DNA from: a virus
Taxonomy: Duplodnaviria > Caudoviricetes
IMG/VR virus record: IMGVR_UViG_3300021387_001774
Location: 160,001-224,000 of that record
Strand: one strand, 5' to 3'
DNA: 64,000 nucleotides
Under the pieces are notes generated by a model. That model was given only the letters and a program-made list of their open reading frames with translations, searched no databases and was not told the origin of the DNA. Shown here piece after piece: positions 37,908-60,694 of the stretch (within the stretch, counting starts at the first letter, position 1; every line of letters starts with the position of its first letter). A program made the position numbers and the translations under genes.

Positions 37908-38927
37908 TTATCTCTTAATACAAGCTGCTATTTCTTTTACAATATCATAACTAGCTAATTGTAAATAATTCTTTATAATCATATCATTAAATAATCCTAA
38001 AGAAGCTTTACCTAAAATAAGCATATTAATAAATGCTGATGCAGAATCTAATGCAAATATAGCATTTTTATTCATACGTTTTACAAAGAATAAATTAAGA
38101 TTTTCTGATTTCAATGCATCATTTTCAATAAATTCATATTCTTCACAAATAATTTTACAGAAATTATCCAATGGAAATATAGTATTATAATCTACATTAG
38201 TCATAATATTTTTATCTGTTTGATAATATAAACATTCATTTTTCAATATTGTAGGATTAGATATAAATTTACTTTTCAAAGCATTATTTATAGCATCTTC
38301 TTTATCTACTCCAAACATAGCTTGAAGACAGAAAATCATAGATAAAAAGAATACTTTATCATATCCAGTATTTGAAGTAGATATAATAGGAAACATATTA
38401 TCAATAATTTTACTTACTATTAATGCATATGATTCTGATACTTTAGTTAAAAATGATTTATTTGTACTTAATTGAGGATCTTCAACTAATTGTAATTGTA
38501 CATATGCAGCAGAAAGTAAATGATATAGAGTCAAATCTGGTATATCATAATAAGTAATAACTCCTTGAGGAGTTTTCAAATATTTTCCTTTTATACTAAG
38601 ATCTACATAATTTACTATTTTACCATTATTGATACCATTCATACTAAATAATGATCTAGGTAATTTATAATCTATAAATAAATCTTTTGCAGATTTATTA
38701 GTAGTAGACATTGTAAAATCACAAGGAATAACTTTTCTAGTTTTAACAGCTTCAATAACATTATCTACAAATGGATATTTATATCCTTTGAAAGCAGATA
38801 ATCTATCCATAATTACATCATCAGGTAATTTATAGTCCATAAAATTAATTTTTTGAAATAATTGACTATAATTATACTTTTTATTTATAAAAGAAAAGAA
38901 TTTTGATTCAGTTAATTTGTTAATCAT
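37908..38927 (-). CDS. hypothetical protein (possibly virion)
   Basis: 339 aa, late-type promoter at 38953-38964. Confidence 0.75.
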   Translation of the reverse strand: MINKLTESKFFSFINKKYNYSQLFQKINFMDYKLPDDVIMDRLSAFKGYKYPFVDNVIEAVKTRKVIPCDFTMSTTNKSAKDLFIDYKLPRSLFSMNGINNGKIVNYVDLSIKGKYLKTPQGVITYYDIPDLTLYHLLSAAYVQLQLVEDPQLSTNKSFLTKVSESYALIVSKIIDNMFPIISTSNTGYDKVFFLSMIFCLQAMFGVDKEDAINNALKSKFISNPTILKNECLYYQTDKNIMTNVDYNTIFPLDNFCKIICEEYEFIENDALKSENLNLFFVKRMNKNAIFALDSASAFINMLILGKASLGLFNDMIIKNYLQLASYDIVKEIAACIKR

Positions 38928-38994
38928 ATCCTAAATACTCCATTCATTGATATACTATATTGTCAAAAATATAAAGAAAATAGAAAAATTGATA

Positions 38995-39420
38995 AAAAAA
39001 ATTATAGAAAATTAAAAATAAAAAATACCCCCATCTAATTCGTATCGCGAATCTTAAAACGCGTTAAAACTATTTATTTTTGAATTTTTTTCACGAAACG
39101 TTAAAACGCGTAAAACTAAATACAAAAGATTAAAATAATTATAACTAATGAGATACTATGTAATTAAAATTTTTTTTAAATTTTTTAGTTAAAATAATTA
39201 AAAATATAGTTTTTGAAGATAAAAAATTAAATAAAAATTATAGAGAAATTAAAAATAGGAAATTACCCCATTTAAATCGTATCACGAAAGTTGAAACGCG
39301 TTAAGCTAATGTATTTTAGATTTTAATCGCGATCATTTTCGACGCGTTAAAACTAAATACAAAAGATTAATCAAAATAATTTCTAAAATGATACTATGTA
39401 ATTAAAAAATTTTTTAATTT
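38995..39420. repeat. tandem ~237-bp-period duplication with four TCRCGA-N8/9-ACGCGT boxes; candidate replication origin
   Basis: ACGCGT at 39059, 39106, 39296, 39342; AAAACTAAATACAAAAGATTAA and GATACTATGTAATTAAAA each present twice; located in a ~560-bp non-coding gap at the coding-strand switch. Confidence 0.85.
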
Positions 39421-39505
39421 TACGAATTGATATAAAAGTTCTATAATTTATTAAAAAATCACATCTTAATATAGAAGTAATTTATACATATGAATGGAGT
39501 TTTAT

Positions 39506-39919
39506 ATGGCTGATAAAGTTTTGATTAATCCAACATTTCGGCTAGATGTAAATGGTAAACTATTTCGAAATAAAAATTCTAATGAAGATATACAAGAAAC
39601 TGTTTTGTTCAATAATCTTATGACTAGATTATCTATAAATAAAGGAGATTTACCTTTATTTCCAGGTTTAGGACTAAAACAATTTTTTGGTAAATTCGAT
39701 TTCATGGATCAAGTAGAAATATCATTAAATCTACAGAAATTTGAAGCCGAACTTGAAGCTCAAATGAATAGGGAATGTCATCTAAAATATTCGTTTGATA
39801 AAGAAAATAAACATGTTGATGTTAGAATTGAGATGGAAGGACTGAAATACCCAGTCAAGGTTAGGTATTTTAATAACAATGGATCTATACGTGTTATAGA
39901 ACCTCAATTTAATGACTAA
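39506..39919 (+). CDS. baseplate wedge gp25-like protein
   Basis: RLSINKGDLPLFPGLGL resembles the gp25/GPW L.T..GE.P..P.FG motif; late-type promoter at 39460; start after the GGAG SD. Confidence 0.55.
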   Translation: MADKVLINPTFRLDVNGKLFRNKNSNEDIQETVLFNNLMTRLSINKGDLPLFPGLGLKQFFGKFDFMDQVEISLNLQKFEAELEAQMNRECHLKYSFDKENKHVDVRIEMEGLKYPVKVRYFNNNGSIRVIEPQFND

Positions 39920-39933
39920 AATGGAGTTTATAT

Positions 39934-40662
39934 ATGGAAAATAACAACTATGCTTCTAGATTTGGTAATACGAATCTTCTTACAGATGAAGAAAAATCTT
40001 CATACAGAGAATTTGCTCAAAAAGTTCATAAAATGAGCCATAAGGATATATTTCTCCTTAATAGTAATATGAGAGATACATTAACTACGGAACAGCAAGA
40101 TATTGTAGCTTGGGAACTTAAATTAAGAGAACTCGAAATATATAAGAAAAAGAATATTAAACCTGAAGAAACTTTTGACACAATGAATGTAACTGGAAAC
40201 GTTCCATTGGATTATGAACTATCTTATGCAGAATTACAGAATAGAGTAAATGCTGAAAAGAAAGCTATGATTGGTATGGATGATAAATTACTTGAAAGAA
40301 GTAAGAAAATTTTGGAAGAACACCCGGTAGTTATTTCTGCTAACAATTTACATAATGTACGTGGTGGTGGTGTAAATATGTTAGCTAAAAGTTATATCGT
40401 AGAAGACGATAATGGTAAACGAATTTCTGTAGATAATCAAAAGATTCAAGAGCATTATCGTAAGATGTATATAAGACGTATGTCTGAAGTTACAGGCATC
40501 GATTATACTCAATATGATTTAACTCCAGATGAAGAAAATATGGATTATCTTGATCCTCCAACAAATACTGATAATAATAAACCTATAAATACTCAAGAAG
40601 ATTTTGTAGGAATGGAAGTTTCTTCTAATATTAATTTGAACGACTATGAAGATGACGATTAA
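39934..40662 (+). CDS. hypothetical protein
   Basis: 242 aa, GGAG SD. Confidence 0.8.
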   Translation: MENNNYASRFGNTNLLTDEEKSSYREFAQKVHKMSHKDIFLLNSNMRDTLTTEQQDIVAWELKLRELEIYKKKNIKPEETFDTMNVTGNVPLDYELSYAELQNRVNAEKKAMIGMDDKLLERSKKILEEHPVVISANNLHNVRGGGVNMLAKSYIVEDDNGKRISVDNQKIQEHYRKMYIRRMSEVTGIDYTQYDLTPDEENMDYLDPPTNTDNNKPINTQEDFVGMEVSSNINLNDYEDDD

Positions 40663-57073: not shown

Positions 57074-57076
57074 TTT

Positions 57077-57198
57077 GGTAATAGGAATGAAGATAGAAAG
57101 GTTGTTACACAAGAAATCTTTTTATTGAGATATGTCTTTGAGTGTACAATAGGGGATATATCGAGATAAAATAATATTTTCATTCATTAACTATTGCC
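57077..57198 (+). ncRNA. putative structured RNA in tRNA spacer
   Basis: GGTAATAG/CTATTGCC, GAATGAAGATA/TATTTTCATTC and GATATGTCTTT/GGGGATATATC nested stems. Confidence 0.5.
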
Positions 57199-57212
57199 GT
57201 TAGATAATAATA

Positions 57213-57328
57213 AACAACTCAAGTGTATTAAAACTGAGACAATGATAGATAATCGGCCGTAAAAAATCTTGTTTTCTAAACTCTTTATTATCATCAGATA
57301 AATAAAGAGCTAGTTTTAATGAGTTGTT
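57213..57328 (+). ncRNA. putative structured RNA (3-way junction) in tRNA spacer
   Basis: AACAACTCA/TGAGTTGTT, ATTAAAACT/AGTTTTAAT, GAGACAA/TTGTTTT, CTCTTTATT/AATAAAGAG. Confidence 0.5.
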
Positions 57329-57334
57329 AATTTT

Positions 57335-57399
57335 CGTCTTATAGCTCAGTGGTAGAGCGGTGGACGCATAATCCGTTGGTCCGAATCCAAGTAAGACTC
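57335..57399 (+). pseudogene. degenerate tRNA (CAT) lacking the variable loop and part of the T-stem
   Basis: GTCTTA/TAAGAC acceptor, canonical D-arm, loop CGCATAA (G33), TTGG-TCCGAAT-CCAA abutting the anticodon stem. Confidence 0.65.
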
Positions 57400-57468
57400 A
57401 TATTTTAAGTATTTAAACTAAATATAATATAATTATATATTATATTAGTGAATAAAGAAATTTATTTT

Positions 57469-57549
57469 GGGGAAGTGGTGGAATGCAGACACATGAGCCT
57501 TAAGAGCTTACGCCGTATTGGCATACGGGTTCGAGTCCCGTCTTCCCTA
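57469..57549 (+). tRNA. tRNA-Leu(TAA)
   Basis: GGGGAAG/CTTCCCT, loop CTTAAGA, long variable arm, TTCGAGT T-loop. Confidence 0.92.
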
Positions 57550-57550
57550 A

Positions 57551-57660
57551 GGCAGAAAACATAAGTCTATCGTGAAAAGGGATTAAGTTCCCCTATGATA
57601 GATGGTCGAACTAGGATGGAATATCCTCAGGAAGAGAGTTTTGCACGTATTAGATCTTCC
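57551..57660 (+). ncRNA. putative pseudoknotted RNA directly after tRNA-Leu
   Basis: GCAGAA/TTTTGC, TCTATCGTG/TATGATAGA, AGGAT/ATCCT, crossing GGAAGA/TCTTCC. Confidence 0.5.
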
Positions 57661-57672
57661 AACTTTGTTTAA

Positions 57673-57820
57673 GGTATAGCAAAACGGCTAGTCATTGATA
57701 CGTATCATTAGGTGATAGGACTTCTTAAGCGTAGTTCAAACCATTATAGTTGAAACTTATTGCTGGGAAGACTTAATGATATTAGTACTTTGATTGTGAG
57801 TTCGATCCTCACCTATACCA
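57673..57820 (+). ncRNA. tRNA-like RNA with a long rod replacing the anticodon arm
   Basis: GGTATAG/CTATACC-A acceptor, GTGAG-TTCGATC-CTCAC T-arm, stemless GG-containing D region, four stacked helices. Confidence 0.7.
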
Positions 57821-57823
57821 ATC

Positions 57824-58077
57824 GGTGGTTTATAACAAAGTGGCTAAAAAGTATGCCCACCATCAAGCTTCTTTCTTCATTGTATACTGGGGAGAAAAGA
57901 AGTATAAATATCCTACCACGCATGCGTGATCGCTTATACTGCTGTAGCCATGAGAAAGTCGCTAGTATAAGACGGAAGAGTAGGTACTTTTACAAATGAA
58001 CAGTCCCTTTGCCTGTTTCGAGAACGACGGCATTTGTAGAAGTAATGGTTTATAGCTGGTTATGAAATAGGCACTTT
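57824..58077 (+). ncRNA. ~255-nt multi-pseudoknot structured RNA
   Basis: At least nine helices, including long-range pairings (see findings); bounded by the tRNA-like RNA and tRNA-Lys. Confidence 0.7.
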
Positions 58078-58150
58078 GGACTTTTAGCTCAGTTGGTAGA
58101 GCAACGCCCTTTTAAGGCGTGGGTCGCGGGTTCAAATCCCGCAAAGTTCA
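58078..58150 (+). tRNA. tRNA-Lys(TTT)
   Basis: GGACTTT/AAAGTTC, loop CTTTTAA, TTCAAAT T-loop. Confidence 0.95.
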
Positions 58151-58230: not shown

Positions 58231-58232
58231 AG

Positions 58233-58354
58233 AGTATATAGGTGAAGGGCAACAACCTGTATACTTATATGATTAGAGCCAACTTGGTAGAGGCTTTAGT
58301 TGTATGTACCTCTTATATTGAAGAGTGGGTTTCGCCGCCCACTCTTCTTTTTTT
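58233..58354 (+). ncRNA. tRNA trailer: two hairpins, ACCTCTT linker, terminator
   Basis: AGTATATAGGT/ACCTGTATACT, ATATGATTAGAGCC/GGCTTTAGTTGTAT, GAAGAGTGGG/CCCACTCTTC plus U-tract. Confidence 0.55.
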
Positions 58355-58451
58355 ATACTGTTAGAGAGAGAGTGTCAATTATATATTATATTAATAGTAA
58401 GGAATGGAAATTGGTTCCATATCCGAAAGAGATTTCATTAAGGAGTCAATT

Positions 58452-59039
58452 ATGGAAAATCTCAGAGAAATTAATGATGACATTATGCTTTATGTCATTA
58501 AAAGATCAAGCAGTTCACATGAAGAATATACGGGGATTCCACTCCCCGTATATTTTGTAGATCTACGTGATCTTTACAAAAATGCTATTGAGGTCGGCAT
58601 TTTTGATTATATAGCTGACCTCACGGCTGGATCGTCAGCATTCTGTTTCAGATACGGAATAGTTTGCGATGAACGGATCAAGAATAATTCTGAATTGGCC
58701 TTTATTCTTCATCATGAGGCAGGTCATATCTTAAATGGAGACATTTATGAACCTTCTGATGATGATGAAAAGGAGTATGCTGCAGATCGTCATGCTTATG
58801 ATGTGACACACCATATTCCTGATTTTAGTAAGATGATCATTGATTATGCGATTCATTGTTTCGATGAATTCACTGATCAAGAGATCAATGAAATAACTTC
58901 AGGGAATTTCAGCGGCCTTGAAGATTATAGAATGACTGCTGAAAAGATGCTTTCTGAGAGCGAATGTGGAGAAGCTTTGACTCTTAGAAAATTAAAACTG
59001 CAAGAGTACATAAACTCTAAAAACGAGTTTAATTATTAG
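58452..59039 (+). CDS. HExxH metallopeptidase-like protein (ImmA/IrrE or M48-like)
   Basis: FILHHEAGHI...EYAADRHA; start moved from 58404 to 58452 (AAGGAG-N6-ATG); terminator at ~59054-59090. Confidence 0.75.
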   Translation: MENLREINDDIMLYVIKRSSSSHEEYTGIPLPVYFVDLRDLYKNAIEVGIFDYIADLTAGSSAFCFRYGIVCDERIKNNSELAFILHHEAGHILNGDIYEPSDDDEKEYAADRHAYDVTHHIPDFSKMIIDYAIHCFDEFTDQEINEITSGNFSGLEDYRMTAEKMLSESECGEALTLRKLKLQEYINSKNEFNY

Positions 59040-59986: not shown

Positions 59987-60694
59987 ATGCGTAAACTAAA
60001 TGAATTAACAACAAACAAGATGGTAAATTTAGTATCTAAAGAAACCAAAAATGGCAATGTAATTATATCTATGGAAGATTCTAAGTATTACTATTTACCA
60101 TTTGATAAATCGTATTTGGATCTTAGTGATCCTAAAATACGTACTTCTTTTATAAAACATGTAGAGAAAATTGTTAGAACTAGTAAATTATATAAGAAAT
60201 ATATTAATTATCTTAAAACTGATATTGGATTAACACATTGTGCAGTATTTGGTAATATTGATGCTAAAAAAGGAGATAAGACTAAAATAGAAATGCATCA
60301 TGGACCAGTATTTACACTTTATGATTATGTAAGTATTGTTCTTGAGAAATATATTACTGAGAAAAAAGATATTAATACATTTGATATTGCTGATGAAGTA
60401 TTAGATCTTCATAAAAGAAAATTAGTACAAACAGTAATGTTATCACAATCTGTACATAAATCAATGGATAATAAAAAATTAGCACCATTTATTTCATTAG
60501 ATATGACATTTGGTGATTTATTTGGTTTTATAAAAGAATATGGAAGATATTTCTCTCCGCAACACAGAGCTGATCTTAAAATATATCTTAATAAACATAT
60601 TACTAATTCTAATATGGATTTGAATATGTTTAAACCAATATTTACAAAATACAATATTAAATTTGTAGATAAACGATTAGGAGAACCAACATGA
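59987..60694 (+). CDS. HNH-like conserved jumbo-phage protein, paralog of 9846-10622
   Basis: CAVFG...IEMHHGPVFTLYDY...LHKR..VQTVML...HKSMD; late-type promoter at 59956. Confidence 0.75.
   Translation: MRKLNELTTNKMVNLVSKETKNGNVIISMEDSKYYYLPFDKSYLDLSDPKIRTSFIKHVEKIVRTSKLYKKYINYLKTDIGLTHCAVFGNIDAKKGDKTKIEMHHGPVFTLYDYVSIVLEKYITEKKDINTFDIADEVLDLHKRKLVQTVMLSQSVHKSMDNKKLAPFISLDMTFGDLFGFIKEYGRYFSPQHRADLKIYLNKHITNSNMDLNMFKPIFTKYNIKFVDKRLGEPT

Follow-up and report, generated by a model that had tools for sequence, protein, structure and literature searches.

The window, a stretch of 64,000 nucleotides (positions 160,001 to 224,000 of IMG/VR record IMGVR_UViG_3300021387_001774), belongs to a virus record of 263,686 bases with a GC content of 29.5%, which, as judged from its sequence, is that of an AR9/PBS1-like jumbo phage of ~264 kb; for a core gene neighboring the locus, the closest isolated relatives are the Bacillus phages AR9 and PBS1, the Yersinia phage phiR1-37 and the staphylococcal jumbo phages. 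The RNA considered here (element C) is set in an ORF-poor tRNA cluster of this phage, in which tRNA-Leu, element A, element B, element C, tRNA-Lys, tRNA-Gln, two hairpins and a terminator follow one another in this order. The principal features are:

57431..57450, plus strand: AR9-type early (virion RNA polymerase) promoter motif, predicted start G at ~57450, matching 12 of 13 AR9 consensus positions plus the 6N-G
57469..57549, plus strand: tRNA-Leu(UAA), the first gene of the operon
57551-57662: element A, a three-hairpin RNA 3' of tRNA-Leu, separate from element C
57673..57820, plus strand: element B, a tRNA-like RNA with acceptor stem, T arm and long variable arm, having the same ends in all alleles
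57824..58077, plus strand: element C, a structured non-coding RNA of 254 nt in the window and 254-317 nt across alleles
58078..58150, plus strand: tRNA-Lys(UUU), its start placed by Rfam alignment and acceptor pairing
58320..58355, plus strand: intrinsic terminator, closing the operon

The promoter motif, scored with the published AR9 early-promoter consensus (PMC5312081), occurs in 68 copies in the genome as compared with 15 in base shuffles. Because this motif lies upstream and the layout of the tRNA cluster ends in a terminator, element C is probably contained within one early transcript of ~900 nt.

Several of the surrounding elements are variable in their own right. Element A, for which no Rfam match was found, stands alone before a terminator in the close relative L003, takes a short form in L059 and is found in L060 as a tandem of long and short copies. 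In element B the acceptor, D region and T arm are invariant across alleles, and the long arm is of two very different types (the element measures 148 nt in the window and 131-132 nt in every other allele), both of which keep the internal-loop motif UGAUAG; its base pair U3-A70 indicates that it is not an alanine acceptor. The tRNA-Leu(UAA) slot (57469-57549 in the window, and the corresponding sites of L037, L042 and L060) has exchanged at least three unrelated alleles. Further upstream, an AU-rich multi-helix element (57076-57334) between tRNA-Met and a degenerate tRNA is conserved in L042, L043 and L060, and the degenerate tRNA itself (57335-57399) has a collapsed anticodon arm and, through a deletion, is 7 nt shorter in the window than in L042; L037 contains an anticodon-less tRNA-Met relic. 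In some relatives an HNH endonuclease gene is inserted into the tRNA cluster just 5' of the promoter, at L043:2871-3446, L060:1945-2532 and L172:7331-7906. On the downstream side, two conserved hairpins lie 3' of tRNA-Gln (58232-58310), the first keeping a GGGCA loop and the second carrying a tRNA D-loop-like loop. Other tRNA spacers are also structured: L060:3357-3623 is a 267-nt helical element, unrelated to element C, between tRNA-Trp and tRNA-Lys, and the more distant relatives L147 (1278-1500) and L157 (1853-2643) contain, respectively, a 222-nt structured spacer with a GGGCCC palindromic loop and a ~790-nt helix-rich spacer with no Rfam match. Outside the window, a sub-threshold group I intron match (G000:C1:40325-40512; 16 bits, E 0.013), near the gene at 38586-40331, is probably a real intron of the source phage.

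Element C was found in nine further loci, drawn from contigs with near-identical neighboring proteins and from a pattern scan of metagenomes, and including the window there are seven distinct alleles: the window, L042 (equal to L044, L049 and L050), L043, L060, L059, L037 and L172. The records of several of these carry the labels of sheep and cattle rumen projects. In all seven alleles the RNA begins with a G located 3 nt past element B and ends at position -1 of a tRNA. In L060 this tRNA is tRNA-Trp, which takes the place of tRNA-Lys and adjoins the same element C 3' end behind a leader one base shorter. The initial annotation of this DNA gave the same limits (57824-58077), with the start 3 nt after a tRNA-like RNA, and described the end as lying at the first base of tRNA-Lys; with tRNA-Lys beginning at 58078, the last nucleotide of element C, 58077, is position -1 of that tRNA.

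A core of 172 nt is common to the alleles (~91% identity), the 5' domain is exchangeable, and insertions and deletions fall within the cassette of P1 and at the tip of P2. The core identity of 91% falls between the values for the two neighboring genes (83-85% and 95-97%), and conservation of the core by itself hence proves nothing. The faster of these genes, a metalloprotease-like gene at 58404-59039 (a weak match to phrog_87; 83-85% DNA identity between alleles), diverges much faster across alleles than the core gene at 59987. The elements of the fold are:

57824..57864, plus strand: 5' domain, P1 (57824-29/57859-64) around an exchangeable cassette
57867..57903, plus strand: P2 hairpin, variable in length, with a ~55-nt structured insertion in L037 and L172
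57912..57984, plus strand: P3 three-way junction, comprising P3 (57912-16/57980-84), P4 (57918-20/57925-27) and P5 (57933-40/57964-71)
57985..58044, plus strand: P6, a 14-bp stem (57985-98/58031-44) with a 32-nt loop
57941..58056, plus strand: PK1, pairing the P5 loop (57941-51) with the tail (58045-56)
58010..58073, plus strand: PK2, pairing the P6 loop (58010-20) with the tail (58063-73); 11 bp, -14.4 kcal/mol as a duplex
57928..58061, plus strand: PK3, a tentative pairing of 57928-32 with the tail (58057-61)

Within the core, formed by P3, P4, P5 and P6, 98% of the pair cells are kept across alleles, and two helices, the 14-bp P6 and the 11-bp PK2, dominate the element. PK2 is paired in every cell, with changes from C-G to U-A and from G.U to A-U in L059, L037 and L172. 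PK1 changes from G.U to C-G in L060 and L059 and has a C-U mismatch in L037 and L172; P4, which is self-complementary over 10 nt in six alleles and 6 nt in L060, shows one G-C to A-U change. PK3 is a weak, tentative pairing: every variant is compatible with it, the changes are one-sided only, and it was selected after the alleles had been seen. The best-supported partners of the 29-nt tail are thus the loops of P5 and P6. As an alternative to PK2, two small hairpins (57999-58003/58013-17 and 58018-20/58025-27) are possible within the P6 loop; they have a compensatory change of their own (C-G to U-A) and are mutually exclusive with PK2. Two-sided changes are accordingly present in P4, PK1, PK2 and the alternative hairpin; given that the alleles are few and related, each of them is probably a single event.

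The 5' domain differs from the core in that its content is swapped among alleles. P1 is fully paired in 7/7 alleles, with a U-A to A-U change, and the enclosed cassette consists of a D-loop-like segment only in the window, of such a segment with a T-arm-like hairpin 3' of it in L060, L037 and L172, and in L059 of a sequence resembling the downstream hairpin (the second of the pair at 58232-58310; score 49 versus 17.5, reached in 0/3000 shuffles). P2 covaries across alleles.

Every motif listed in the initial annotation was located where it had been placed, and P2, P3, P5, P6 and the loop-tail pseudoknot 57941-51/58045-56 that it proposed are kept across alleles. A hairpin at the 5' end also stands, in a register other than the GGTGG/CCACC pairing suggested, which has mismatches in L060 and L059. 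The two hairpins proposed within the 14-bp stem survive as the alternative state described above. The more elaborate proposal, that the loop of the 5' hairpin pairs twice with the 3' end, is not supported, as the 5' domain varies as a cassette and the best-supported partners of the tail are in two core loops. One of the two pairings (AAAGTG.CTA, 57837/58068) is missing from three alleles (L059, L037 and L172) and has no two-sided change in its favor; the other (57829/58059) can form in five alleles, but its 5' strand is deleted in two, it overlaps the stronger PK2, it likewise shows no two-sided change, and PK3 competes with it. PK2 was missing from that helix list.

The statistical signal depends on pseudoknots being allowed. 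The nested minimum-free-energy fold of element C is no better than that of shuffles (z -0.24), but greedy helix packing that permits pseudoknots gives a fold of the 172-nt core that beats shuffles (z -3.1; 1/300 shuffles), and the same packing yields z -2.4 to -3.2 for the core of three other alleles. When helices were taken from the window sequence alone and the same substitutions were placed at random, about 4-6 broken pairs per allele (also given as 4.7-5.8) were expected and 0-2 were found (p 0.0003-0.09 per allele, or 0.0003-0.04 with the latter expectation), although these tests are not independent, because the alleles are related and mosaic. Together, the alleles, the constant ends and the loss of the overlapping ORF (see below) support the earlier proposal that this is a separate non-coding RNA with several pseudoknots, delimited by tRNA processing sites, and we consider it very probable that element C is a real, discrete structured RNA.

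The family appears to be narrowly distributed. The close relative L003 contains tRNA-Leu and element A without elements B and C, and element C is therefore dispensable in some kin. A covariance model of the core, run on 52 jumbo-phage records of greater distance, yielded no convincing match, the best distant match being a group I-like stretch at chance level (17.6 bits, E 0.08-0.13); this model is short in reach, as it was built from four close sequences. Pattern scans of viral contigs and genomes returned nothing or unrelated matches, blastn against isolated phages and plasmids gave matches at chance level only, and a 222-nt spacer before tRNA-Lys in another genome (G003) showed no significant likeness (p 0.07 or worse), nor did P6 to the element B arm (p 0.07 or worse). 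Rfam searches at gathering thresholds and at E<=10 (window) or E<=3 (three allele loci) found no match within element C, in agreement with the earlier statement that it could not be assigned to a family, and a literature search for two core motifs found none. Element C thus apparently represents an uncatalogued structured RNA family, with overlap with a catalogue of phage structured RNAs (PMC10690425) being possible; the 'new class' of the initial annotation is upheld as a new family, so far from one narrow phage clade only.

Element C resembles the RNAs of phage tRNA clusters, namely GOLLD, ROOL and T4 RNA C and D, and is a member of none of these groups. It shares with GOLLD (RF02032) and ROOL (RF03087) a phage-encoded site beside tRNAs, pseudoknots and the lack of an assigned function, and with its tRNA-flanked phage setting and multiple pseudoknots it belongs to the same ornate kind of RNA. 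In comparison with these, element C is short (254-317 nt versus about 550-800+ nt) and its helix order differs. The GOLLD model has no match at the locus (the sole match in the genome, elsewhere, scores 11 bits against a cut-off of 150), and the ROOL model has none, in a search that included no control genome with ROOL, the lengths again differing (254-317 versus about 550-580 nt). The T4 RNAs C and D, which are about 120-140 nt long with tRNA-like ends, lie in the phage tRNA cluster and are cut out together with the tRNAs. They are closer to element B than to element C, and are late transcripts, whereas element C has a promoter of early type in front of it and a core with two pseudoknots. In GOLLD, the 3' region is conserved, the 5' region varies and tRNAs are sometimes contained in the RNA (bioRxiv 10.1101/2024.12.08.627333), and a conserved 3' and variable 5' organization beside tRNAs is likewise seen in element C; the T4 species (rnaC, rnaD) are stable small RNAs without assigned function (PMC9697503). 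Several pseudoknots are also present in ARRPOF and the raiA motif RNA (255 nt and about 205 nt, respectively; PMC12990946), which are akin to element C in size and pseudoknots but occur in plasmid or chromosomal contexts rather than in tRNA operons; element C has no Rfam match. A tmRNA, in one piece or as two pieces together with element B, was rejected, since element B has U3-A70 rather than G3.U70 and element C contains no tag-like frame; the only helix joining elements B and C (57738-47/58042-51), on which a two-piece tmRNA would depend, uses an element B arm missing from other alleles. Pairing of element C with element A or B was more generally rejected, the pairings being lost across alleles.

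The reading that we prefer, with a probability of about 0.5, is that element C is a stand-alone RNA gene of a rumen jumbo phage and that its product, non-catalytic and stable, is set free by host RNase P, locks its liberated tail into its core and acts as a protein-binding scaffold or decoy. Element C would be transcribed early together with tRNA-Leu, elements A and B, tRNA-Lys and tRNA-Gln, between a promoter and a terminator that are seen at the locus and whose activity we infer. Its 5' end would arise from 3' trimming of the tRNA mimic, element B, and its 3' end from a cut by RNase P at the +1 position of the tRNA that follows, as suggested by its position and by the established biology of RNase P and RNase Z. 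The 172-nt core would then fold and the 29-nt tail enter the P5 loop (PK1) and the P6 loop (PK2), an arrangement that the alleles support. PK2 probably locks only after removal of the tRNA, since a helix of 11 bp inside a closed loop completes one whole turn and can be threaded only by a free end; the geometry from which this is reasoned sets 11 bp against loops of 23 and 32 nt. Until the tRNA has been removed, the P6 loop may be kept in its alternative hairpins. The locked tail would bury the 3' end and stabilize the RNA, by analogy with docking at the 3' end of MALAT1, where RNase P cuts at a downstream tRNA-like unit (mascRNA) and the freed tail docks into an upstream stem-loop, shielding the end (PMC8457004). 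This parallel is functional only and implies no homology, the MALAT1 structure being eukaryotic and based on a U-A.U triple helix, in contrast to the Watson-Crick pseudoknots and true tRNAs of element C.

In the last and least supported step, the stable core, in which purine-rich joints are left unpaired, together with its exchangeable cassette of tRNA fragments, would most likely serve as a non-catalytic scaffold or decoy for proteins, possibly in multimeric form, in early takeover or counter-defense. The self-complementary P4 is a lead toward such oligomers. A host-protein scaffold or decoy appears the most likely role because no catalytic motif, no antisense target in the phage and no gene for Ro60 (TROVE), RtcB or CCA-enzyme domains, looked for as partner proteins, was found in the phage. 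A far bolder version, a new RNA fold that becomes topologically locked once the tRNA has been processed, with the tail threading two closed loops by a full helical turn each to give a tangled core that resists exonucleases, is catalytic or self-assembling and carries swappable tRNA-mimic cassettes against host defenses, seems to us distinctly unlikely.

The tail of element C is also the 5' leader of the following tRNA in all alleles, which is compatible with a cis-acting leader that never becomes an independent RNA and that controls whether or when the downstream tRNA is matured, or else protects the precursor against exonucleases. As a switch, such a leader would be sequestered by PK2 at positions -5 to -15 and left free for RNase P by the local hairpins, and both states of the P6 loop do show compensatory change. 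We nevertheless regard this as unlikely: a core of 170 nt with several junctions, to which P1 and P2 are added, exceeds the needs of a switch, element C remains intact where the downstream tRNA is exchanged (L060), and relatives (G003) have the same tRNA-Lys maturing behind an unrelated spacer.

The initial annotation called the RNA ribozyme-like, and a new ribozyme that cuts at its own end, maturing the tRNA in cis as theta ribozymes do, or that acts in trans would fit a compact, pseudoknotted, tRNA-flanked RNA with invariant purine-rich joints. The theta (HDV-like) ribozymes of gut phages start within 5 nt of a tRNA-like 3' end (PMC10879173), and the first G of element C, 3 nt past element B, lies inside this ±5 nt range. 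Element C is, however, several times longer than these ribozymes, with a variable 5' domain that is freely swapped, and it lacks the HDV core; searched for P3-L3, P1.1 and the catalytic C of J4/2, it contained no L3-like motif or C-N-R-A junction. Nor were a hammerhead motif, the P, Q, R, S elements and P4-P6 domain of group I introns, or the CR-I/CR-V pairing that forms P4 with its bulged U in bacterial RNase P RNA found at the locus, and Rfam gave no ribozyme match at E<=10. Most alleles have 4 nt between the PK2 helix and the tRNA, L060 has 3 nt, and this variation favors an RNase P-type cut, measured from the tRNA, over a cis-acting ribozyme core. The ribozyme label was therefore not sustained, and a ribozyme of either sort is in our view quite improbable.

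Equally doubtful is a decayed or selfish RNA, the remnant of a group I intron, a tmRNA-like RNA or a tRNA duplication with no present function. The 5' cassette is indeed tRNA-derived or copied from a neighboring hairpin, the region recombines and acquires HNH genes, and the best distant model match is group I-like, though at chance level; against this, substitutions avoid breaking pairs, and no P4-P6 domain, tag frame or family match was found. A guide or antisense RNA or a small protein gene is highly improbable: although a 79-codon ORF (57760-57999) is open in the window, it starts within the allele-specific arm of element B, is broken or absent in four alleles (L060, L059, L037 and L172), has no PHROG match and is absent from a set of 15 billion proteins, and the best antisense match of element C in the phage genome is 13 nt long and no better than chance (E 0.79).

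The weight of these findings is limited by the narrow distribution of element C and by its origin in an uncultured phage, where it is known from sequence alone. Structured RNAs of phage tRNA clusters such as GOLLD, ROOL and T4 RNA C and D are still without assigned function, and element C is small enough to be transcribed, probed and imaged, while its natural variants show which part is the fixed core and which the swappable tRNA-like cassette. The locking reading predicts that RNase P cleavage switches the P6 loop from its local hairpins to the tail helix; if this is true, element C would be a bacterial-virus parallel of the 3'-end lock of MALAT1, and possibly a rare example of a threaded RNA.
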